A DNA stretch of 64,000 nt from Limisphaerales bacterium. Lineage in GTDB: Bacteria; Verrucomicrobiota; Verrucomicrobiia; Limisphaerales; UBA11358. Within the stretch, counting starts at the first letter, position 1; each line of letters begins with the position of its first letter. This document shows, piece after piece, positions 3,116-32,694 of this stretch. The notes under the pieces are model-generated. The model saw only the letters and a list, made by a program, of their open reading frames with translations, was not told the DNA's origin and did no database searches. The position numbers and the translations under genes are program-made. The DNA lies in the NCBI GenBank assembly GCA_003161635.1, contig PMOA01000148.1:26144-90143 (forward strand), given 5' to 3'.

Positions 3116-3130
3116 TTGGTGTGGCCGTGG

Positions 3131-3208
3131 ACGTCAGTCCGCACCAATTTCATCCACCTGACTACTTCACAATTGAGTTCAGCGCCGACTGACGTCGGCG
3201 GCTACAGA
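3131..3208. repeat. Intergenic REP-like element ('TDVGGY' family)
   Basis: Contains gcgccgactgacgtcggcggctacaga (3182-3208). Its exact 27-nt reverse complement lies inside leuS at 4202-4228. Also shares the cagtccgc and ctgac(t/a)cttc(c)ac blocks with that copy. Confidence 0.7.
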
Positions 3209-19805: not shown

Positions 19806-19883
19806 GGGGTAATGGAGTAATGGAGTAATGGAGTGTTGGAAATCTTTTTCAGCGCCGCACCACTCCATCACTCCATCACTCCG
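19806..19883. repeat. Intergenic hairpin of tandem octamers (taatggag x3 / ctccatca x3)
   Basis: ggggtaatggagtaatggagtaatggagtg...caccactccatcactccatcactccg, between birA and coaX. Confidence 0.7.
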
Positions 19884-19884
19884 T

Positions 19885-20862
19885 TCACTTTTCCAAGGTC
19901 ACATCGCCGCCGATGACGCGCTCCAGATGCCCGTGCTCGGTGCGCAGCAGCAAGGCGCCGGCGTCATCCAACGACTCGGCGCGGCCGCGAATCTTGCGCT
20001 CGCCAGTTTGAATCGTCACGTTGCGGCCAATCGTCTGGCAATGCGCTTCCCATTCGTCCGCCACCTCCGCGAAGCAGCCGCCGCAAATCCGTGTGTAATC
20101 GCCATCGAGTTCGCGCAAAATCGCCGTCGCCAGTTCTGAGCGCGAAATCGTTTTGCCCGATTCAATTTTGAGCGAAGTCGCCAGCTTGCGCAATTCCGGT
20201 GGAAACTCGCTCGTGCTCAGATTTACGTCCACGCCGATGCCCAGGATGACGTGACGAACCCGGTCCAATTCCGCGCTCAACTCGGTCAAAATGCCCGCGA
20301 CTTTTTTCCCGCCAATTAAAATGTCGTTCGGCCATTTGATTTCGGGATGCAAACCGGTTTCGGATTGAATCGCGCGTCGAAGCGCCGTTGCGGAAGCGAC
20401 CGTCAATTGCGTCGCTTCCTGCGGGCGCAAATCCGGCCGCAGCAAAACGGAAAACCAAAGTCCTTTCCGTCCGGGCGAAATCCATTTGCGGCCGAGCCGC
20501 CCCCGGCCCTTCGTCTGCGACTCGGCAAAAACGACAGCGCCCTCCTTGACGCCGTCGCGGGCGAGTTTTTCGATCACGTCGTTCGTCGAGGTCGTTTGCT
20601 CGAACACGCGGATGTCGCGGCCGATGACCTTCGTTTTGCCGAGGCGGGCGAGCAAATCGTCGGCGTGCAACACATCCGGCGCGCTGACGAGCCGGTAGCC
20701 AAAATGCGGACCGGCCTCGATTTCGTAGCCGAGCTGGCGCAACTGCTCGATGCGTCCCCAAATCGCCGCGCGCGTGACCCCCAATTGCCCGGCAAGGTCT
20801 GCGCCCGAAACGCCGTCGGGATTTTCGCGCAACGCGGAAAGAATTTTTGCGTCCGTGGTCAT
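19885..20862 (-). CDS. birA: Bifunctional biotin-[acetyl-CoA-carboxylase] ligase / biotin operon repressor
   Basis: N-terminal wHTH ILSALRENPDGVSGADLAGQLGVTRAAIWGRIEQLRQLGYEIE. GRGRLGRKW motif. Confidence 0.9.
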   Translation of the reverse strand: MTTDAKILSALRENPDGVSGADLAGQLGVTRAAIWGRIEQLRQLGYEIEAGPHFGYRLVSAPDVLHADDLLARLGKTKVIGRDIRVFEQTTSTNDVIEKLARDGVKEGAVVFAESQTKGRGRLGRKWISPGRKGLWFSVLLRPDLRPQEATQLTVASATALRRAIQSETGLHPEIKWPNDILIGGKKVAGILTELSAELDRVRHVILGIGVDVNLSTSEFPPELRKLATSLKIESGKTISRSELATAILRELDGDYTRICGGCFAEVADEWEAHCQTIGRNVTIQTGERKIRGRAESLDDAGALLLRTEHGHLERVIGGDVTLEK

Positions 20863-23644: not shown

Positions 23645-24007
23645 ATGAAAACAGAGTTGCAGACCGCCGTTGAAACGCTCGGCATCGAAAAATTCCGGCG
23701 CCACATTTTTCTTTGTGCCGACCAGGCCAAGCCTAAATGTTGCACGAAGGAGCACGGACTGGCCGCCTGGGAATTTTTGAAACGGCGGCTCAAGGAACTG
23801 AATCTCGCCGGCCCGGAGCCGCTGGTTTATCGCACCAAGGCCAACTGCCTGCGCGTCTGCGTGCGCGGGCCAATCGCAGTCGTTTATCCCGAAGGCGTCT
23901 GGTATCACTCCTGCGCGCCAGAAGTGCTGGAACGCATCATCCAGGAGCACCTGATCGGCGGGAAAATTGTCGGGGAGTTTGCCTTTGCGCATAATCCGCT
24001 GCCGTGA
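23645..24007 (+). CDS. Thioredoxin-like [2Fe-2S] ferredoxin family protein
   Basis: [15 protein letters not shown]...[22 protein letters not shown]. Confidence 0.7.
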
Positions 24008-24133
24008 ATCCAACGGGTCCGGTTAACATAAATTCCCAATCTTTATTGCCATAATTCAGGCTGCACCACCCCCCATTTTCCGCTCGACTTTCGTTTATTT
24101 AACGCGCAGAATTACCTTGGTTTCGGAGGAAAC

Positions 24134-24748
24134 ATGGCCAGATTGCTCATCAAGACCGGGGGTTTGGAAAACCAGATGTTAGAACTGCGTTTCGGCATCA
24201 ATCGCGTCGGGCGCGACCCTGACTGTGATTTCCCCATTGATCATCCCACCGTGTCCTCAAACCACTGCGAACTGGTGTTGTCGAGCGAAGGTGTGATGCT
24301 CCGCGATTGCGACTCGACCAACGGCACGTTCGTCAACGGCGATCCGGTCAAGGAAGCGTGGCTGCTTCCCGGCCAGACGGTGAGTTTGGGCGACGTGGAA
24401 TTATTCGTCGAATCCACCGAGGTCAACGTTGCGATCCCCAAGTATGAGCACGAGCGTCCCAAACCGCCGGTGGTGCTTGAAGGTGGCGTGTTGCTCTGCC
24501 CGCGTCATCCGCAGGTGCCGGTCACCTACAAATGCACCCACTGCAACGAGGTGATGTGCAACGGTTGCGTGCATGTGATACAACGCAAAGGCGGCCTGGC
24601 GCTGTTCCTCTGCACGCTTTGCAGCCACAAGTGCGAACCCGTTGAAGTCGTGAAACCGGTGAAGAAAAAAACGTTGATTGGCTTTTTGCGGGACACCGTC
24701 AAACTCCGGTTCCGGAACCCGGCCGGGCGCGAAAAATCGGGAAGATAA
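24134..24748 (+). CDS. FHA-domain protein with a C-terminal Cys/His zinc-ribbon region
   Basis: FGINRVGRDPDCDFPIDHPTVSSNHCELV...STNGTFVNG, then CPRHP...CTHCNEVMCNGCVH...CTLCSHKC. Confidence 0.8.
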   Translation: MARLLIKTGGLENQMLELRFGINRVGRDPDCDFPIDHPTVSSNHCELVLSSEGVMLRDCDSTNGTFVNGDPVKEAWLLPGQTVSLGDVELFVESTEVNVAIPKYEHERPKPPVVLEGGVLLCPRHPQVPVTYKCTHCNEVMCNGCVHVIQRKGGLALFLCTLCSHKCEPVEVVKPVKKKTLIGFLRDTVKLRFRNPAGREKSGR

Positions 24749-24758
24749 ATGTACGGCT

Positions 24759-25784
24759 TTAGGACGGCGGTTGGTTTTTCAAAAAACGCCGGACCATTTT
24801 CTCCAGCGCCGCAATCCAGAGCGGATGTTCGTTGAGACACGGAATTTGCGCGCACTCCTTTCCGCCTGCCTCTAAAAATATTCTCCGCCCCCGAATGCCG
24901 ATTTCTTCCAGCGTCTCCAGACAATCCGAGACAAACGCCGGGCAGATGACCAGAAGCTTTTTGACTCCGCGCCTTGGCAACTCCACCAGTTCAAAATCCG
25001 TGTAAGGCTTCAGCCACGGGTCGCGGCCGAGCCGGGATTGGAACGAAATTGAATACCGGTTCACGGGGACGCCCGCTTTCGCAACAAATGCCGCCACCGT
25101 TTTAAAACATTGCGCGCGATAACACGTCGCGTGCGCCAGGCTGCCGGTTTCGCAACAATTCGACACGGTCAAACAATGGCCTCCGGTCGGGTCGGATTTG
25201 CGCAGATGCCGTTCCGGAATGCCGTGAAAACTGAACAGCAAATGGTCGTAGCCCGCCTCCAGATGATTTGCCGCGCTCGCCGCCAGGGCCGCGATGTAAT
25301 CCGGCGCGCCGCCGTAGGGCGGTTGGACTTCGACCCGCATTTGCGGCGCGAGTTTTGCCACGACTTCCTTCACCCGCTCCACCGCCGTTTCGTAGCTCGA
25401 CATCGCGTAGTGCGGGAACAGTGGAATGAGAAATAATTCGTCCACGCCGCGGTCGCGCAATTTCCGAATCGCATCTGGAATGGACGGATTTTGATAACGC
25501 ATCGCCAGTTCAACCGGCGCGGTGACACACTTTTGCAGTTCGGTCTGCACCCGTTTGCTCGTGACGATGAGTGGCGAACCTTCCGGCAGCCAGATTTTTT
25601 TGTAAGCCTCGGCGGCTTGTTTCGGACGGTTGATGAGAATCATCCCCACGATGAACCGGCGCAGCAGCCAGGGCGTGTCAATCACCCGCCCGTCCATCAG
25701 AAATTCATTCAAATAACGCCGCACGTCGCCGACGGAGGTCGAGTCCGGCGAACCCAGATTGACCAGCAAAACGCCTTTGTTCAT
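24759..25784 (-). CDS. hemH: Ferrochelatase
   Basis: GVLLVNLGSPDSTSVGDVRRYLNEFLMD, FSFHGIPERH, FQSRLG. Confidence 0.93.
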   Translation of the reverse strand: MNKGVLLVNLGSPDSTSVGDVRRYLNEFLMDGRVIDTPWLLRRFIVGMILINRPKQAAEAYKKIWLPEGSPLIVTSKRVQTELQKCVTAPVELAMRYQNPSIPDAIRKLRDRGVDELFLIPLFPHYAMSSYETAVERVKEVVAKLAPQMRVEVQPPYGGAPDYIAALAASAANHLEAGYDHLLFSFHGIPERHLRKSDPTGGHCLTVSNCCETGSLAHATCYRAQCFKTVAAFVAKAGVPVNRYSISFQSRLGRDPWLKPYTDFELVELPRRGVKKLLVICPAFVSDCLETLEEIGIRGRRIFLEAGGKECAQIPCLNEHPLWIAALEKMVRRFLKNQPPS

Positions 25785-27289
25785 TTGGCAGTCAGGGATT
25801 TTTCCACGCGTTCCACGATATTCACGCCCGACACAATCGTGTCGCCCAGCGAAACGCCGTCGCGATAGTGGCCGGCAAAGAAAAGGCCCGCGACCTTGTT
25901 TTCGATTTTGTTCATCAATTCGCGGTAACGACCGTAGCCGACGTTGTATTGCGGAATCGCCTTAGGATAAAGCACGCAGTGCTCGAAGGTCGTTTTGCCG
26001 GTCACGCCCAGCAGCACACGCAGGTCTTCACACACCAGCGCGACAAGTTTCTCCGCCGGCAGCAAGGCAAGTTCCGGATAACGCTCGCCGCCGATGTAAC
26101 TTGTCAGCGTCAAATGACCTGTCGGCGCGCGATTGGGGAACAGCGACGACGAGAAAATCGTGCCGAGAATTTTAAAGCCTTCGATTTTGGGAATCAACAT
26201 GCCGAAGCCTTCGCACGGATGCGCCACATCCTCGCGGCGAAATCCCAGCACCACGCTCGCCACCGGCGGATGACGGATTTCGGAAAATGGCGAGAGGTCG
26301 AGCGGCTCAAGTTCTTTATCCTCGGTAGGGCGGTGCTGCTGCGCCGCCCCCATTTCAAGGCTGCGCGGCAGCGCAGCCCTACCACACATCACTTTCAACT
26401 CCGCCAGCCTGAACGCCGTGCCGCAATAAATCACCGCGCTGTGTTCTACTCGCGTTTCCCGGAGGGACGATCTCTGCGAGTCCCCAACTTCACCCGCCGT
26501 GAGTGGGGCTCGTGGAACTCGCCCCTCCGAAAGCGTGAGAGTCCAACCGGCAGCGGTCTGCGTCAGCTTTGTAACTGGGGTGTTTAGCCTCACCGCGTCG
26601 CCAAGTCGCGCCGCCAGCGTATCCGGCAGAACTTGCAAACCTTCATCAAACGAAAATTTTGGCGCATGATCCTTGGCCACTTCACCGCTCCGCTTCCGCG
26701 CACCCGCACCGAAAATCTGGCCTTTGATCAGTGAGCCGTAATTGTCCTCCAGCGCCTTGAGCTTGGGAAAAGCGTGCGTCAAGGAAAGCCGGTGCGGATC
26801 GCCCGCGTAAATTCCGGCCACAAGCGCGTCAATGGCTTGATCGAGAAATTCCTGGTTCAGCCGGCGCACAACGAATTGCGCGATACTTTCCTCGACGCCA
26901 TCGCGGCGGCGCGGCACAAACGGTTCGCGCAACACGGCCAGCTTGGCTTTGGCGGTGAAAAGTTTCGTCGTGAAAAAACCGAGTGGCGAACCCGGCATCG
27001 CCATGGGGCGTTTGTAGCGGACAACATACCGCGCCTCCGCTTTCGGATCGGGATTGAGCCGACGCGTTTCCAGGCCTGCGTCGCGGACGAGTTGGGCGAT
27101 TTTCGGCGATGTTTCGAGAATCGTGTTCGGCCCGAACTCGGCGAGATAACCGTCCTGGCGCAGCGACTGAATCACGCCACCCACGCGCCCGCCCGCTTCA
27201 TAAACCGTGACCGGGATGCCTTTGCGTTTCAGATAAAACGCGGCGGTCAACCCCGTGATGCCGGCCCCGATGATGGCGACGGGTTTCAT
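25781..27289 (-). CDS. hemY: FAD-dependent protoporphyrinogen/coproporphyrinogen III oxidase (HemY/CgoX type) with in-frame repeat insertions
   Basis: MKPVAIIGAGITGLTAAFYLKRKG (dinucleotide fold). C-terminal LFFAGHYRDGVSLGD. 4-nt overlap with hemH. Confidence 0.85.
   Translation of the reverse strand: MKPVAIIGAGITGLTAAFYLKRKGIPVTVYEAGGRVGGVIQSLRQDGYLAEFGPNTILETSPKIAQLVRDAGLETRRLNPDPKAEARYVVRYKRPMAMPGSPLGFFTTKLFTAKAKLAVLREPFVPRRRDGVEESIAQFVVRRLNQEFLDQAIDALVAGIYAGDPHRLSLTHAFPKLKALEDNYGSLIKGQIFGAGARKRSGEVAKDHAPKFSFDEGLQVLPDTLAARLGDAVRLNTPVTKLTQTAAGWTLTLSEGRVPRAPLTAGEVGDSQRSSLRETRVEHSAVIYCGTAFRLAELKVMCGRAALPRSLEMGAAQQHRPTEDKELEPLDLSPFSEIRHPPVASVVLGFRREDVAHPCEGFGMLIPKIEGFKILGTIFSSSLFPNRAPTGHLTLTSYIGGERYPELALLPAEKLVALVCEDLRVLLGVTGKTTFEHCVLYPKAIPQYNVGYGRYRELMNKIENKVAGLFFAGHYRDGVSLGDTIVSGVNIVERVEKSLTAK
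26324..26383. repeat. 60-nt REPIN-like doublet in frame in hemY
   Basis: ggtagggcggtgctgctgcgccgcc (26324-26348) / ggctgcgcggcagcgcagccctacc (26359-26383). Encodes CGRAALPRSLEMGAAQQHRPT. Confidence 0.65.
26461..26533. repeat. REPIN doublet of the 'GGGGCTCGTGGAACTCGCCCCTCC' family in frame in hemY
   Basis: 26505-26533 is an exact 29-mer, also present at 28499-28527 and as the reverse complement at 27867-27895. The degenerate partner arm is at 26461-26485. Encodes SEGRVPRAPLTAGEVGDSQRSSLRE. Confidence 0.8.
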
Positions 27290-27313
27290 TTAAAACCGGA
27301 AATAATGCCTCGT

Positions 27314-27862
27314 TTATTTGCCACTTAACCCTCGTTTCAAGAATCTCCCGTATGCAAAAAGTGCTTTGTCTAAATCTCGATGAGATACATTTTGAAATGT
27401 TTTTGTGAACGGAATATAGTGGTCAAAGTAGATTTGGATTTTCTGTGGGCGAGAGTCGGGTAACTCTGAAAGAGTAAAATTACAGATTTTTGCCATCGCG
27501 CGATAGGTATGCTGATCAAAAATGGGAAAAAGCCTGTGATTGATGCAATGAAGCCAAAAAATGTCCCAGATCGCACCTCCCTGCAAAGATGCTAAATATT
27601 TCTTGCCAGCTTCATGTGACGACAAGCTAGGTAGTTTTTTTAATTGCGAAAGATAGACCGTCCGGATCGATTGCTGCTTTTTCTTGGCGATTTCTTCCGT
27701 GCTGTTTTTCCATTTATATAATGCCCACACACGGTTTTTGTCCAACGACTTTCCTATGTTTTTATCGTAGAGATGTTCCAAATCATAAGAATACTCCTTA
27801 CTCCAGAAAGCAACGAAATCTGCTTTATTGGCCGAGACAAATTGGACGATTTCAAGTTTCAT
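27314..27862 (-). CDS. Hypothetical protein, strongly AT-rich orphan inside the haem operon
   Basis: 182 aa, about 38-40% GC by eye against about 60% in the flanks. No family recognised. Confidence 0.6.
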   Translation of the reverse strand: MKLEIVQFVSANKADFVAFWSKEYSYDLEHLYDKNIGKSLDKNRVWALYKWKNSTEEIAKKKQQSIRTVYLSQLKKLPSLSSHEAGKKYLASLQGGAIWDIFWLHCINHRLFPIFDQHTYRAMAKICNFTLSELPDSRPQKIQIYFDHYIPFTKTFQNVSHRDLDKALFAYGRFLKRGLSGK

Positions 27863-27866
27863 ATTC

Positions 27867-28527
27867 CTTTCGGAGGGGCGAGTTCCACGAGCCCCTGACT
27901 AAAAACAACATTTGGGACTCGTAAAGCTCGCCCCTCCGATTTTTCATTAAGTTGCATCATGCCACGGCAATATATTGAGTTCACCTTGATACGGCCAGTC
28001 TTCCGGCCGTTTCACCAGACCATCCTTGATTGGATTTTCCCAGAGATAAAGCCACTTTTAATGATAGCTTTCGCCGTGGCGTAACTGCCGGTCGAAAAAA
28101 TCGCGTTGCCAAACCGGCTTTTCCGCTGGATACGGCCAGCGGCGGGTTGCCTCGGCACGCCAAAAACGAACCCATTGTTTCAGCGGCGTGACCGGCAATT
28201 TCGCGGGCGCACAGAAAAGATGCAAATGGTCGGGCATGATAACGTAGCGTCCCACCAACCAATGGTCGGCCTTGCGCCAACAATCGAGCAATAGTGCGAC
28301 AATATCAGGCTTGGCCAGCAAAGGGCGGCGTTTGTCTGCACAAACGGTGACATATTGGAGAACGGTCTGATCCGGAAATTCCAACGGAACCAGATGCGGG
28401 AGCGCAAGGCGACCTGGTTCCCGGATTGGTTCTTGCATGAAACCAAATTGAGCCGCATCTGGATTGTCCGGCAAGTTGAAAATGGGGGCTTGAAAATGGG
28501 GGCTCGTGGAACTCGCCCCTCCGAAAG
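27867..28527 (-). mobile_element. REP-flanked RAYT locus: REPIN - Y1 transposase pseudogene - REP
   Basis: REPIN 27867-27938 (cggaggggcgagttccacgagcccc ... gggactcgtaaagctcgcccctccg). RAYT gene 27947-28474. Single REP 28499-28527. Confidence 0.7.
27947..28474 (-). pseudogene. REP-associated tyrosine transposase (IS200/Y1 HUH family) with an in-frame TAA
   Basis: HUH motif YVIMPDHLHLF. After ...RQLRHGESYH the frame hits TAA (28058-28060), then continues in the same frame as KWLYLWENPIKDGLVKRPEDWPYQGELNILPWHDAT* (stop 27947-27949). Confidence 0.75.
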
Positions 28528-28528
28528 G

Positions 28529-29908
28529 TCAAATCGTTCGCGAATGTTTCCGTTCGCCCATCGGCGCGAGGGTGTTGTCGAAACACATCGCGATGTTGCG
28601 GATGAACAGGCGGCCGGTGTCGGTGACTTCCAGCCCGGTCGGGGAACGGCGCACCAGGCCGTCGGCTTCAAACGGCGCGAGCGACGCGAGTTCCGGCGCA
28701 AAGTGTTCCGCGAAGTTGATGCCGAGCTTGGCGCTCATGGCGGCGTAATCAAGCGACAGATCGCACATCACGCGCATGATGGTCTCCCGCCGGATTTTGT
28801 CCTCGTCGGTCAGGAAATACGCGCGCTGTAGCGGCACTTTGCCCGCATCCACGGCTTCCTGGTATTTCGGGAGTTCCTTCTCGTTCTGCCAGTAGGCTTC
28901 GGGAATCTGCGAGATGCTGGACATGCCGAACGCGTAGATGTCCGAACCGGCGCGCGTGCTGTAGCCCTGGAAATTGCGCTGGAGCTGCTTGTTGCGCTGC
29001 GCCACGGCCAGTTCGTCGTTGGGCCGCGCGAAATGATCCATGCCGATATAGACGTATTGGTTGTTGGCGGTGAGTTTCTCAATGACCAGCTTGAGCACCT
29101 GCAACTTGGTCCCGGCGGCGGGGAGATGCTGTTGCTGCTCCAGGATTTTTTGGGCGGGCTTGACCCACGGCACGTGCGCGTAACTGAAAACCGCCAGCCG
29201 GTCCGGCTTCATTTCCAGCACGATATCGAGCGTCTCGTTGAACGACTCCGGCGTCTGGTGCGGCAGGCCGTAGATGAGGTCGAGGTTGATCGAGCCGTAA
29301 CCCAACTCGCGCATCCAATCCATCGCCTGTTGCGTCATCGCGCGCGGCTGGATGCGGTGGACCGCTTCCTGCACCCTGGGGTTGAAATCCTGCACGCCCA
29401 TCGATGCGCGGTTGAAACCGATCTCGCGCAGCGCAACCATGTGATCGCGCGTGAGCCGGCGCGGGTCCACTTCCACGCTGGCTTCGATGTCCGGCGAAAA
29501 CGTGAAGTGTTGGTGGATGATTTCGCCAAGGCGGCGGATTTCATCGGGCTGTAAAAAAGTCGGCGAACCGCCGCCAAAGTGGAGTTGCCCGGCTTTGCGC
29601 TGCGGATTCAACCGCGGCGCCATCTCCGCCACCTCGCGGCCAAGGTAATCCACATAGTCCCTGCCCTTGTCGTGATTGAGCGTGATGACGGTGGTGCAGC
29701 CGCAAAACCAGCAGAGCGTCTCGCAGAATGGAATGTGAAAATAGAGCGAAAGGCCGCGCCCGGTCCGGTTGTTTTCCGAAATTTTTTCGGCCAACTGCGG
29801 CCACGTTATCGCGTCGGTGAATTTCGTGGCGGGCGGGTAGGAGGTGTAACGCGGCCCGGCCACGTTGTATTTTTCCACCAAAGCCAAATCCACTTTGAGC
29901 GTCTTCAT
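28529..29908 (-). CDS. hemN: Oxygen-independent coproporphyrinogen III oxidase (radical SAM)
   Basis: Start MKTLKVDLALVEKYNVAGPRYTSYPPA. LYFHIPFCETLCWFCGC (CxxxCxxC). The track ORF extension to 30112 overlaps hemE. Confidence 0.93.
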   Translation of the reverse strand: MKTLKVDLALVEKYNVAGPRYTSYPPATKFTDAITWPQLAEKISENNRTGRGLSLYFHIPFCETLCWFCGCTTVITLNHDKGRDYVDYLGREVAEMAPRLNPQRKAGQLHFGGGSPTFLQPDEIRRLGEIIHQHFTFSPDIEASVEVDPRRLTRDHMVALREIGFNRASMGVQDFNPRVQEAVHRIQPRAMTQQAMDWMRELGYGSINLDLIYGLPHQTPESFNETLDIVLEMKPDRLAVFSYAHVPWVKPAQKILEQQQHLPAAGTKLQVLKLVIEKLTANNQYVYIGMDHFARPNDELAVAQRNKQLQRNFQGYSTRAGSDIYAFGMSSISQIPEAYWQNEKELPKYQEAVDAGKVPLQRAYFLTDEDKIRRETIMRVMCDLSLDYAAMSAKLGINFAEHFAPELASLAPFEADGLVRRSPTGLEVTDTGRLFIRNIAMCFDNTLAPMGERKHSRTI

Positions 29909-29933
29909 CACGATAAAAATGTAGCCGTCCCGT

Positions 29934-31076
29934 TCATTTGAACTTTTGCACCGTCTCGACCAAGGCGGCGATGTTTTCCAATTTTGCATTGGGCGGCACG
30001 CCGTGACCAAGGTTGAAAATATGACCTTTGCGACCGCGCATGGCCTCGAGAACGGCCCGCGTTTCCTGTGCGACAACTTCCGGCGTGGCGTCGCTGAGCA
30101 GCGCGGGCGCAAGGTTGCCTTGAAGAGCGATGTCAGCGTGCAAAAGCCGGCGCGCGTGAGCCAGCGGAAATTGCCAGTCTATGCCCAGCACGCTTGCCCC
30201 GGTCGTCAGGAGATCATCCCAATTCCCGTGCGTGCCGAGGGAAAAAACAATGACGGGCGGAGCGCCGATCTCTGAATCGGCGCACTTCGCGTTTGTCCGT
30301 GTTCGCGCCGAATCGGAGTTCGGCGCTCCGAGACTGCCAATGATGTCCCGCATCCAACGCCCGGAAGCCTCCTGAAATTCCGTCGGCGCGAGCTGGCCGC
30401 CGTGACTGTCGAAAATCTGGAGCGCGTCCACGCCGGCGTTGATTTGCATTTGCAGATAAGCGGTGATGGCGGCGGTGAGTTTCCCGGCGAGCGCATAAAA
30501 AGTTTTCCGGTCTTCCCGAAAGAGGCTCAAGGCGCGGATGTATTTCCCGGCGCTGCCGCCTTCCATCATAAACGTGGCCAGCGTCCACGGCGAACCCGAG
30601 AAGCCGATGAGCGCGGTCTGGTCGCCGAGTTCCTTCCGAAGCAGGCGCAACGCCTTGTCCACGTAGCTGAGGCGTTCGGTCACGCGCTCGACGGAAAGGC
30701 GCTCGATATCGGCCCGTGTGCGCACGGCAAAGTCCATGACCACGCCGCCGGTTTCGCGGAAACGGTAAGGCTGACCCATCGCCTCGGGAATGACGAGGAT
30801 GTCGCTGAACAGGATCGCCGCATCGAATCCGAATCGCCGAACCGGCTGGAGCGTGACTTCGGCGGCAAGCCCGGGCGTTTGAATCAATTCCAAAAAAGAA
30901 TGCTTCTCCTTCAGTTCGCGATACTCCGGCAAGGCGCGCCCGGCCTGCCGCATCAGCCAGACGGGCGGGCGATCCGTTGCGCGGCAGTGGCAGGCATCGA
31001 GAAACCGCCGGCGATTCGTCGGGTTGCCCGAGACGGCGGGCGCGTTGGCGTTGGCGTTGGTTGCAATGGCGGCCAT
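29934..31076 (-). CDS. hemE: Uroporphyrinogen decarboxylase
   Basis: PPVWLMRQAGRALPEYRE, FDAAILFSDILV, NLGHGV. Confidence 0.93.
   Translation of the reverse strand: MAAIATNANANAPAVSGNPTNRRRFLDACHCRATDRPPVWLMRQAGRALPEYRELKEKHSFLELIQTPGLAAEVTLQPVRRFGFDAAILFSDILVIPEAMGQPYRFRETGGVVMDFAVRTRADIERLSVERVTERLSYVDKALRLLRKELGDQTALIGFSGSPWTLATFMMEGGSAGKYIRALSLFREDRKTFYALAGKLTAAITAYLQMQINAGVDALQIFDSHGGQLAPTEFQEASGRWMRDIIGSLGAPNSDSARTRTNAKCADSEIGAPPVIVFSLGTHGNWDDLLTTGASVLGIDWQFPLAHARRLLHADIALQGNLAPALLSDATPEVVAQETRAVLEAMRGRKGHIFNLGHGVPPNAKLENIAALVETVQKFK
30259..30329. repeat. Palindromic element in frame in hemE
   Basis: ggagcgccgatctctgaatcggcgc (30259-30283) / gcgccgaatcggagttcggcgctcc (30305-30329). 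Encodes GAPNSDSARTRTNAKCADSEIGAP. Confidence 0.7.
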
Positions 31077-31201
31077 GTGTTTTGAGCAGTATTACGGCTG
31101 CATTGCTATTAGCATACCCAGTCGGTTTTGAACAGCGAGTTGCGCTTTCAATTTTTTGAGCAACTTTGTCCGGACACCGGTTTTTAATCAAAAGCGAGAC
31201 C

Positions 31202-31693
31202 ATGAAAGCCAACGAACTCCATTCCAAACTCCGCGAATCCAGCTGGCGGCGGAAGCTCACTGAAACCGAACAAGCCGAATTGCGCGCTTATCTCGCCGCA
31301 AATTCCGACGCACGCGCCGATTGGGAAATGGAATCAGCCTTAAACGCCGCGCTCACCCGGTTGCCGGACGCACCCGTGCCGTCGAATTTCACCGCGCGCG
31401 TGCTTCAGGCGGTCGAACTCGAAGAGGCCCGACCGCACGGCTGGAGCTGGCGTTGGAACTGGCATACGCTTGTGCCGCGCGTCGCATTCGCGGCGGTGGT
31501 GATTACCTTCACCGGTTTGGCCCTCCATCACCATGAAATTTACAGCCAGCGCGCCGCGCTGGCCAGGAGCGTTGCGTTCGTGACCAGGGGACAACCGGTG
31601 CCCAGCCCGGAAGCGCTGGAAAATTTTGACGCCATCCGCCGCATGAGCCAGCCACAGCACGCGGACGACGAATTGCTGGCATTAATGCAATGA
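31202..31693 (+). CDS. Hypothetical single-pass membrane protein (anti-sigma-like layout)
   Basis: MKANELHSKLRESSWRRKLTETEQAELRAYL..., with one TM segment (VAFAAVVITFTGLALH). Confidence 0.5.
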   Translation: MKANELHSKLRESSWRRKLTETEQAELRAYLAANSDARADWEMESALNAALTRLPDAPVPSNFTARVLQAVELEEARPHGWSWRWNWHTLVPRVAFAAVVITFTGLALHHHEIYSQRAALARSVAFVTRGQPVPSPEALENFDAIRRMSQPQHADDELLALMQ

Positions 31694-32694
31694 TTCGTTC
31701 GTGGCAGGTGCGTTGCTGGCTCGCCGCCGTTTTCGCAGTCGGCCTGTTTGCCGCTTTCCAGCTCATCGCCGAAACGGCCACGAATGTTCGGGCTCCGCAA
31801 AAATTATTTTCCGCGCCGACGAATCCTTCGCTGCCTCCGATCCCGCACTTAAAGTCACCCGTGGATTTATTCCGTGAACTCCTGGCGATGACGCCCGCCG
31901 GACGGGAAAATTATCTGACGAATCGGCCGCTGGGAATCCGCGCCCGCATTCTCGCCAAGGTGCGCGAATACGAAGCGCTGGACCCGAACGATCGCGAATT
32001 ATGCCTGCGCGCCACCGAACTCCGCTGGTATTTGCTCCCCCTCATGCGCGAATCCCCGACGAACCGTGCCGCGCGGCTGGCAGCCATTCCGGATGATCTG
32101 CGGGCCCTGGTTAAAACGCGCCTCACGCTATGGGATATTTTGCCGCCGCCATTCCAGAAGGAATTTTTTGAGAACGAGCGCGCCCTGCGCTATTTCATGC
32201 AGGTGGATTCATCAAACAGCCCGCCGATGCCGCCCCTGCCGCCGGACCACGGATGGCATCACGGCCCGCCGGACCACGATTTGGCGCACTGGAACACGCT
32301 TTCGGAGGACCAGCGTCAAAAAATCACCGCACAATGCAACCAGTTTTTTGAACTGACGCCGATGGAAAAAAAGAAAACGCTCAACACCCTGTCGAACGCC
32401 GAGCAGCAGCAAATGGAAAAAACGCTGGAGACGTTTGGGAAATTGCCCCCGGTGCAACGCTTTAAGTGCATCCGCGCGTTTACGGAATTTGGCGGCATGA
32501 GCGCGCAGGAAAAACAGGATTTTTTGAAAAACGCCCAGCGCTGGTCGCAAATGTCGCCCAAGGAACGCCAGACCTGGCGCGATCTCGTCACCCACGTCCC
32601 CGAATGGCCGCCGTTGCCACCCGCATTGATGCCGCCGATGCCGCCACAGTTGACGCAGCGTCTGCATCCGGTGGCCGCCACCAATCCCAACTGA
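31690..32694 (+). CDS. DUF3106-like repeat protein, secreted
   Basis: ATGA overlap with the upstream gene. Repeated W-x-x-L/M-S/T-P-x-E/Q-R/K helices (RWSQMSPKERQTWRDL, FFELTPMEKKKTL). Pro-rich tail. Confidence 0.6.
   Translation: MIRSWQVRCWLAAVFAVGLFAAFQLIAETATNVRAPQKLFSAPTNPSLPPIPHLKSPVDLFRELLAMTPAGRENYLTNRPLGIRARILAKVREYEALDPNDRELCLRATELRWYLLPLMRESPTNRAARLAAIPDDLRALVKTRLTLWDILPPPFQKEFFENERALRYFMQVDSSNSPPMPPLPPDHGWHHGPPDHDLAHWNTLSEDQRQKITAQCNQFFELTPMEKKKTLNTLSNAEQQQMEKTLETFGKLPPVQRFKCIRAFTEFGGMSAQEKQDFLKNAQRWSQMSPKERQTWRDLVTHVPEWPPLPPALMPPMPPQLTQRLHPVAATNPN

Follow-up and report, generated by a model that had tools for sequence, protein, structure and literature searches.

A putative REP-associated tyrosine transposase pseudogene and its cognate palindromic repeats in the haem operon of an uncultured Limisphaerales-like bacterium

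The transposases associated with repetitive extragenic palindromes (REPs), termed REP-associated tyrosine transposases (RAYTs) or TnpA-REP, can be told from those of IS200-type insertion sequences by their tyrosine signature, which is Y---Q in class 1 (IS200) and Y---NP in class 2 (TnpA-REP) (Quentin et al., 2018, PMC6006769). REPs have been reported in the Planctomycetes-Verrucomicrobia-Chlamydiae (PVC) superphylum, where Opitutus terrae is rich in GTAG repeats, and also inside genes; REP superfamilies are catalogued by GTAG or CGTC tags (Di Nocera et al., 2013, PMC3733652, which also cites the literature on Rickettsia palindromic elements). Here we describe a RAYT locus with its REPs and a REP doublet forming hairpins (REPIN) within the haem operon of an uncultured Verrucomicrobiota (Limisphaerales-like) bacterium, based on 64 kb of one genome (contig PMOA01000148.1; hereafter the window), to which all RAYT and REP counts for this genome are limited. 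To our knowledge, RAYT/REPIN systems have been studied almost entirely in Gammaproteobacteria.

We conclude that the locus is very probably an old, vertically inherited REPtron (a class-2 Y1 HUH transposase with its own REP hairpins) that resides in the haem operon and was recently inactivated by one nonsense mutation. On the minus strand the genes run hemE-hemN-(REP-RAYT-REPIN)-ORF182-hemY-hemH, and the RAYT unit is co-oriented with the hem genes. The RAYT pseudogene (27947..28438, minus strand; 163 codons and the natural stop) was recognized by its translation, NCBIfam, an alignment of homologues and a profile search of the PDB. A first-pass annotation, made from the letters alone, had placed it between a REPIN doublet and a single REP, and both are confirmed (27866-27939 and 28499-28528).

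The translated frame (...GRYVIMPDHLHLF...QLRHGESYH*KWLYLWENPIKDGLV...) includes YVIMPDHLHLF, in which the HUH motif H71-L-H73 is encoded at 28220-28228 (minus strand). The codon of the catalytic Tyr131 lies at 28046-28048 (minus strand) and is followed by N135-P136. H71, H73, Y131, N135 and P136 are invariant in 20 sequences, and the tyrosine context Y-L-W-E-N-P has the form Y---NP. The equivalog model NF047646 of NCBIfam (REP_Tyr_transpos) matches the window protein with an E value of 1.4e-22 over model positions 13-145 of 146, and is matched by all 20 aligned family members (best E 2.2e-27). When a profile of the family was compared with solved structures, E. coli TnpA-REP (4ER8) ranked first (3.5e-11), with an IS200-type transposase at 0.0024; in the alignment with 4ER8, Tyr131 corresponds to Tyr115 and Asn135 to Asn119. 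A protein search returned 1391 RAYT homologues, most of them 163 aa long, and the window carries a single copy. The assignment of a Y1/HUH transposase of the REP-associated type, already made in the first-pass annotation, is thus upheld by the NCBIfam model, the top-ranked structure and the Y---NP signature. That annotation would have been overturned by a grouping with ordinary IS200 TnpA; the same three results, together with the missing Pfam Y1_Tnp match, support grouping with RAYT/TnpA-REP instead. By its sequence, the gene appears to be a RAYT by descent and a pseudogene by state.

The frame is interrupted at codon 127 by a premature TAA (28058-28060, minus strand) that replaces CAA (Gln). 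This in-frame stop upstream of the C-terminal Tyr helix, within ...RHGESYH*KWLYLWENPIKDGLV..., had been noticed before and is present as described. The orthologous DNA of two relatives (L026 and L054) reads CAT CAA AAG where the window reads CAT TAA AAG, a single C-to-T transition. Among aligned homologues, 19 of 19 have Gln here, and so does every correctly aligned member of the nearest protein cluster at 90% identity. The TAA sits four codons before Tyr131, and the codons for Y131, N135 and P136 lie downstream. The product is therefore shortened to 126 residues that keep the HUH motif and lose the tyrosine nucleophile and the metal-binding Asn. A stretch of 1261 bp that includes the TAA is 100% identical to the window in six contigs from six samples (ENA and JGI), two of which show about 0.8% divergence from the window in adjacent genes, and a truncated ORF of 138 aa was called independently by two gene callers. 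An exact look-up of the truncated protein gave no match, probably because the initial TTG is entered as M. The stop is real and not a sequencing error, as it occurs in six independent metagenome assemblies.

Assigned by parsimony with L026 and L054 as references, the changes in the RAYT gene on this lineage comprise 13 synonymous, three missense and one nonsense codon. There are no indels, and nothing has changed downstream of the stop, so the inactivation is recent. This pattern is what purifying selection until shortly before sampling would leave, and the gene is best described, from these comparisons, as a recent, population-wide pseudogene in this species. A selective sweep or recent transfer, considered because of the zero differences in the 1261-bp RAYT/ORF182 stretch, was rejected: the difference-free tract among strains extends over about 4.2 kb (24505-28760) and includes hemH and hemY, and differences elsewhere are clustered.

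The single REP on the 5' side of the gene (28499..28528; minus-strand sequence CCTTTCGGAGGGGCGAGTTCCACGAGCCCC) and one arm of the doublet on its 3' side (27866-27895) form a perfect inverted repeat of 30 nt (100% complementary) that brackets the RAYT gene. Within the doublet (27866..27939), the arms at 27870-27895 (plus) and 27914-27939 (minus) are 26 nt long, 85% complementary and separated by an 18-nt spacer. The exact 24-mer GGAGGGGCGAGTTCCACGAGCCCC occurs three times in the window (26505, 27872 and 28499), where 100 shuffles gave an expectation of none. As single-stranded DNA the doublet is predicted to form a single long hairpin (-23 to -24 kcal/mol, z about -7), and the single REP a short GC stem that encloses an internal loop (-6 kcal/mol). 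CGGA-tagged hairpins were not enriched in a generic scan of the window (12 found, equal to the highest count in shuffles, whose mean was 6.3). The inner end of the 5' REP is overlapped by a 14-nt tandem duplication of TTGAAAATGGGGGC (two copies, 28476..28503) in the RAYT leader; TTGAAAATGGGGGC is single-copy in L026 and L054, so the duplication is specific to this lineage.

Five REP units of this family were counted in the window. As the first-pass annotation had recognized, the family also occurs in frame inside hemY, as a 72-nt REPIN (26459..26530, minus strand) encoding ...SEGRVPRAPLTAGEVGDSQRSSLRE...; its arm at 26459-26484 is the more diverged partner that makes the hemY copy a doublet. 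The REPIN contributes about 24 residues (SEGRVPRAPLTAGEVGDSQRSSLRE) to a HemY loop that is variable. REP units are likewise present inside hemY in L054, L026 and L135, and the hemY alignment places the encoded insert at the same position in L054 and L026. In L131, which is without this REPIN, an unrelated sequence of similar length is found at the corresponding HemY position.

The family is defined by a TCGGA tag, a 5-bp co-varying stem and the core GAGTTNNACGA. A scan for the REP pattern, with one genome per species, found at least 120 stretches, nearly all in Verrucomicrobiota metagenome-assembled genomes from peat, bog and soil. Selecting sites on the loop core GAG[CT]TNN[AG]CGA alone, in the fetched loci and the window, gave 304 sites among the loci listed and the window; the 5-bp stem is fully paired in 217 of them (shuffled mean 136, maximum 148). 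The stem types are GGGGC/GCCCC (107), the G-T intermediate GGGGC/GTCCC (54), GGGAC/GTCCC (27), GGGCG/CGCCC (15) and GGGTC/GACCC (3); the variants are compensatory. Next to the stem, on its 5' side, the five bases are always TCGGA, and GTGG or GTAG is found inside the loop region on the complementary strand only. The family thus falls outside the GTAG and CGTC superfamilies, which are assigned by the tetranucleotide at the stem-loop end: the invariant flank here is TCGGA.

Among the 120 loci listed there are 88 convergent doublets, 59 singlets and one divergent pair. Only two of the 120 hold a RAYT, both at the orthologous haem locus, and REPs without the gene occur in at least 118. The assembly of the closest relative, DAIRTX01, has at least 12 REP units in at least six blocks, and that of another sister, CAWDPX01, at least 42 in at least 20 blocks. 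In related genomes the flanking repeats are dispersed far from any RAYT. The first-pass annotation had named a lack of enrichment of these repeats elsewhere in the genome as evidence against its reading; dispersal was found in the sister genomes, and for this genome the analysis covered 64 kb.

An intact RAYT occupies the same hemN/hemY site in four other lineages (L026, L054, L135 and L137), at 78-94% amino acid identity. At the DNA level, L054 (DAIRTX010000004) is 93% and L026 (CAWDPX010000021) 84-90% identical to the window, and in both the order is hemN, REP, intact RAYT, REP or REPIN, then hemY. The RAYTs of L135 (P0004, 86% amino acid identity) and L137 (P0010, 78%) lie at the hemN/hemY site with the same REP arrangement, and the L137 REPs have the co-varied stem GGGAC/GTCCC. 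The 5' REP is at the same position in all four lineages, inverted REPs bracket the gene in each of them, and a REPIN doublet 3' of the RAYT is also present in L026 and L137. Because the RAYT is syntenic in five lineages, the window's included, we infer that it is a long-standing, vertically inherited operon resident in one clade; the gene order points to an old syntenic resident of the haem operon rather than a fresh insertion. More distant homologues (77%, 71% and 65% identity in L127-L129) lie in unrelated housekeeping neighbourhoods, namely ychF/suf, an aminotransferase with a nucleoside transporter, and aroC/trpA. Each of these is bracketed by its own inverted cognate REPs, and the REP variants co-vary with the gene. 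L131 matches the window in its wider synteny and has a gap without a RAYT.

The intact enzyme of the relatives presumably works like E. coli TnpA-REP. It would recognize single-stranded REP DNA by its conserved 5' TCGGA tag and its imperfect hairpin, and would cut and rejoin this DNA via Tyr131 with the HUH-bound metal; such activity would maintain the dispersed population of REP doublets. In this species the C-to-T change that turned the CAA of Gln127 into TAA would yield a 126-residue product without the nucleophile, and the flanking REPs and the in-frame hemY REPIN would now be relics without a local enzyme.

Several points weigh against this interpretation. The NF047646 score is borderline (80.1 bits, with a cut-off of 80), and the window protein has no match to Pfam Y1_Tnp, even at E values up to 10; the latter was not counted against a RAYT, since motifs, NCBIfam model and PDB profile search all point the same way. 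All five REP units lie within 2 kb of the RAYT gene, and the abundance of the family in this genome is known from the window only. The activity of the verrucomicrobial RAYT subfamily is argued by analogy with E. coli TnpA-REP, and a second, intact RAYT paralogue may exist elsewhere in the genome, outside the window. The sequence past the stop is perfectly conserved, which fits a recent mutation and would also fit selection via low-level read-through. Finally, the RAYT distances place the window, L054 and L026 in a star-like pattern (about 90% each), whereas the flanking genes are 93% and 84% identical, and recombination may blur the assignment of RAYT changes to branches.

We consider other explanations in descending order of plausibility. 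The RAYT and the TCGGA REPINs could have acquired, by co-option, a role in how the haem operon is expressed or its mRNA processed, or in the diversification of surface loops in the operon's enzymes. Across the clade the gene has remained intact, co-oriented and syntenic, and related palindromes lie in frame in hemY and hemE, one of them swapped between strains (see below). We regard co-option as unlikely; if it is true, the nonsense allele is a natural knock-out for testing REPIN decay after RAYT loss.

It is also highly improbable that the truncated 126-aa product, a HUH fold without the Tyr, is kept as a non-cleaving REP-binding protein, a regulator or a dominant-negative factor. The N-terminal 126 codons are open, the substitutions on this lineage are mostly synonymous and the allele is fixed, but the synonymous bias is equally explained by a recent mutation. 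Furthermore, the region past the Tyr helix belongs to the aligned conserved core in 4ER8, and no comparable truncation was seen in other lineages among the homologues examined.

The first-pass annotation had left the choice between recent inactivation and read-through. The former is sustained by the six assemblies, the 13/3/1 distribution of changes and the lack of indels. As for the latter, the RAYT could still be functional if the TAA were bypassed by read-through, a suppressor tRNA or recoding, perhaps keeping the transposase at a very low level. The 36 codons past the stop are intact and unchanged on this lineage, and the stop allele is fixed in six assemblies without further decay. However, every homologue examined has Gln at this codon, so there is no conserved recoding site, and TAA is a normal terminator in this genome: it ends 10 of the 41 long ORFs in the window, including hemH, three of them in the same TAA-A context. 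UAA is the least leaky bacterial stop codon. The only tRNA in the window is tRNA-Arg(CCT), with no suppressor tRNA, and no Rfam element or obvious stimulatory structure was found in 24000-32000 (the single Rfam match, of a miRNA precursor to the REPIN hairpin, is attributable to chance at E 0.39). Given the ordinary use of TAA, the Gln in homologues and a window without a suppressor tRNA, we conclude that the stop is not a recoding signal, and see only a slight chance that the gene is still functional.

There is very little to recommend the idea that the haem operon has recently been entered by an ordinary insertion sequence of the IS200/IS605 type, with the repeats as its own ends. The protein does belong to the Y1 HUH superfamily, 15 of 20 homologues have weak matches to Pfam Y1_Tnp (best E 0.0056), and a perfect 30-nt inverted repeat marks the bounds. 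Its tyrosine context, however, is Y---NP and not the class-1 Y---Q, TnpA-REP is the best solved structure, there is no tnpB gene and the window holds one copy. Moreover, at least 118 stretches have the flanking repeats and lack the gene, and occupation of the same site in lineages whose RAYT is just 78% identical is at odds with a recent jump. An artefact of sequencing or assembly in a gene that is intact in the real organism can be practically dismissed: the difference from the orthologues is a single base, and assemblies rather than reads were compared, but six assemblies from different samples, pipelines and sources are identical over the 1261 bp, two of them from strains about 0.8% different in neighbouring genes, and two gene callers independently gave the truncated 138-aa ORF.

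The very probably inactivated RAYT shares its gap with a second gene. The earlier claim that the locus splits hemN from hemY holds for the REP-RAYT-REPIN unit, but it overlooked ORF182 (27314..27862, minus strand), a conserved hypothetical gene of 182 aa between the REPIN and hemY. The GC content of ORF182 is about 40%, compared with 57-60% in its surroundings. Its family comprises 95 homologues, all hypothetical proteins, and its exact sequence is found in 43 blocks of the assembly collection. Searches of Pfam, NCBIfam, PADLOC and PHROGs assigned no family, and a sequence profile search of the PDB gave nothing. A role for ORF182 as cargo or partner of the RAYT was rejected because L131 has a homologue but no RAYT, and L134 has one in an unrelated context; ORF182 is not part of the REP/RAYT system. 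The AlphaFold model is all-alpha and of high confidence (predicted local distance difference test, pLDDT, 95). Its fold matches are weak and consistently to HhH-GPD DNA glycosylases (Ogg, MutY, EndoIII; E 0.1-1, template-modelling score 0.41-0.45). Judged by eye rather than with an alignment tool, the invariant stretch GGAIWxIFWLHC...FPIFDQHTYR looks similar to HhH...FPVDTHVxR of the HhH-GPD superfamily. The likeness to these glycosylases has no sequence-level support and is offered as a lead only.

The space between hemN and hemY is a variable spot in the clade, and the RAYT is one of several occupants. ORF182 is absent in L026. In L054 it is replaced by an AT-rich ORF of 114 aa of membrane type, with an N-terminal hydrophobic helix. 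Between the RAYT's 3' REP and this ORF lies a diverged copy of some 90 bp from the 3' end of hemN, stop included (copy and ORF in L054 4641-5083); the copy is closer to the hemN of L026 than to L054's own. The L054 arrangement suggests a cassette exchange by recombination via the flanking hemN/hemY homology. In L131 the same gap holds a 67%-identical ORF182 homologue without a RAYT, and in the interval between this homologue and hemY (L131 5613-6100) some 57 bp from the 5' end of hemY are duplicated. These short duplicates of neighbouring genes in L054 and L131 mark old rearrangements. The L131 interval also holds an array of about 400 bp with roughly a dozen AAAATGGGGGC-containing repeats; the AAAATGGGGGC motif is the one duplicated beside the REP in the window, in the opposite orientation.

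The neighbouring genes encode enzymes of haem synthesis, all on the minus strand. Upstream of the RAYT unit are hemE (31076-29934) and hemN (28529..29908; Pfam Radical_SAM and HemN_C), an oxygen-independent coproporphyrinogen oxidase-like radical SAM enzyme (SAM, S-adenosylmethionine) that is 459 aa long as called in the identical assemblies and whose stop directly adjoins the 5' REP. Downstream are hemY, a protoporphyrinogen oxidase (25781..27289; Pfam Amino_oxidase and NAD_binding_8), and hemH (25784-24759). A scan for promoters and terminators gave counts not above those of shuffles, with nothing informative between hemN and hemY.

The unusual inserts in the HemY and HemE proteins are palindromic repeats that have been translated. 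A second palindrome in hemY (26324-26383) is in frame in a second variable region, with 25-nt arms that are 84% complementary and a 10-nt spacer. It is unrelated to the first and unique in the window; the corresponding region of L131 has a different palindrome with 28-nt arms (L131 6996-7066). The in-frame palindrome of hemE (30258-30330) is of another family with the same 5' tag (TCGGAG-CGCCGA...TCGGCG-C) and has 26-nt arms that are 88% complementary. In two strains that are 99.2% identical overall (L122 and L124), another palindrome with the TCGGA tag takes its place in hemE, shorter by 3 nt and still in frame, which explains why strain differences cluster at 30206-30345. Two palindromes at gene boundaries (19811-19885 and 3120-3206) are both unrelated to the TCGGA family: one has 28-nt arms of AATGGAGT repeats, and the other has 23-nt arms and lies between convergent ORFs.

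As a well-documented but ordinary example, the locus leaves the current understanding of the REP/RAYT system unchanged. It documents a verrucomicrobial RAYT subfamily with a TCGGA tag, a stem that co-varies with the enzyme lineage and a long vertical residence in an essential operon. The nonsense allele in one species, set against the intact gene in its sisters, offers a natural paired comparison for REPIN decay after RAYT loss. For annotation, the 138-aa 'hypothetical protein' called here should become a RAYT pseudogene.

Among known systems, the locus can be compared with IS200/IS605 TnpA (class 1, e.g., IS608). The HUH/Y1 fold is the same, as would be the chemistry on single-stranded hairpin DNA, but lacking here are the Y---Q signature, distinct left and right ends, the frequent tnpB and the movement of a whole multi-copy element. 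The palindromes in hemY and hemE resemble the intragenic REPs and Rickettsia palindromic elements treated by Di Nocera et al. (2013, PMC3733652) in that they lie in frame in housekeeping genes and are translated into short peptides. They differ in having neither GTAG nor CGTC as the tag at the stem-loop end, and the loop that holds the hemY insert is also variable in L131, which lacks the REPIN. The REPIN/RAYT system of Pseudomonas fluorescens SBW25 (Bertels and Rainey, 2011, PMC3116915) has several features in common with the locus: its repeats are mainly inverted doublets that form one long hairpin, and its RAYT has its own flanking REPIN and is vertically inherited at a fixed locus. Unlike that system, the one described here belongs to another phylum and RAYT subfamily, lies inside a biosynthetic operon and co-oriented with it, and has REPINs that are also in frame in genes. 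Lastly, E. coli TnpA-REP (RAYT, YafM; PDB 4ER8) is likewise a small single-domain Y1 HUH protein of about 160 aa with the HUH and Y---NP motifs, bracketed by inverted REPs that combine a conserved 5' tag with an imperfect hairpin, and one gene is accompanied by many REPs. Its sequence is distant (profile E 3.5e-11) and its tag is GTAG, whereas the window's REPs have a TCGGA tag and a hairpin with a 5-bp co-varying stem around GAGTTNNACGA, the host is a member of the Verrucomicrobiota and the gene carries a nonsense codon. The locus provides a clear case of a REP tag with stem co-variation outside the Proteobacteria.

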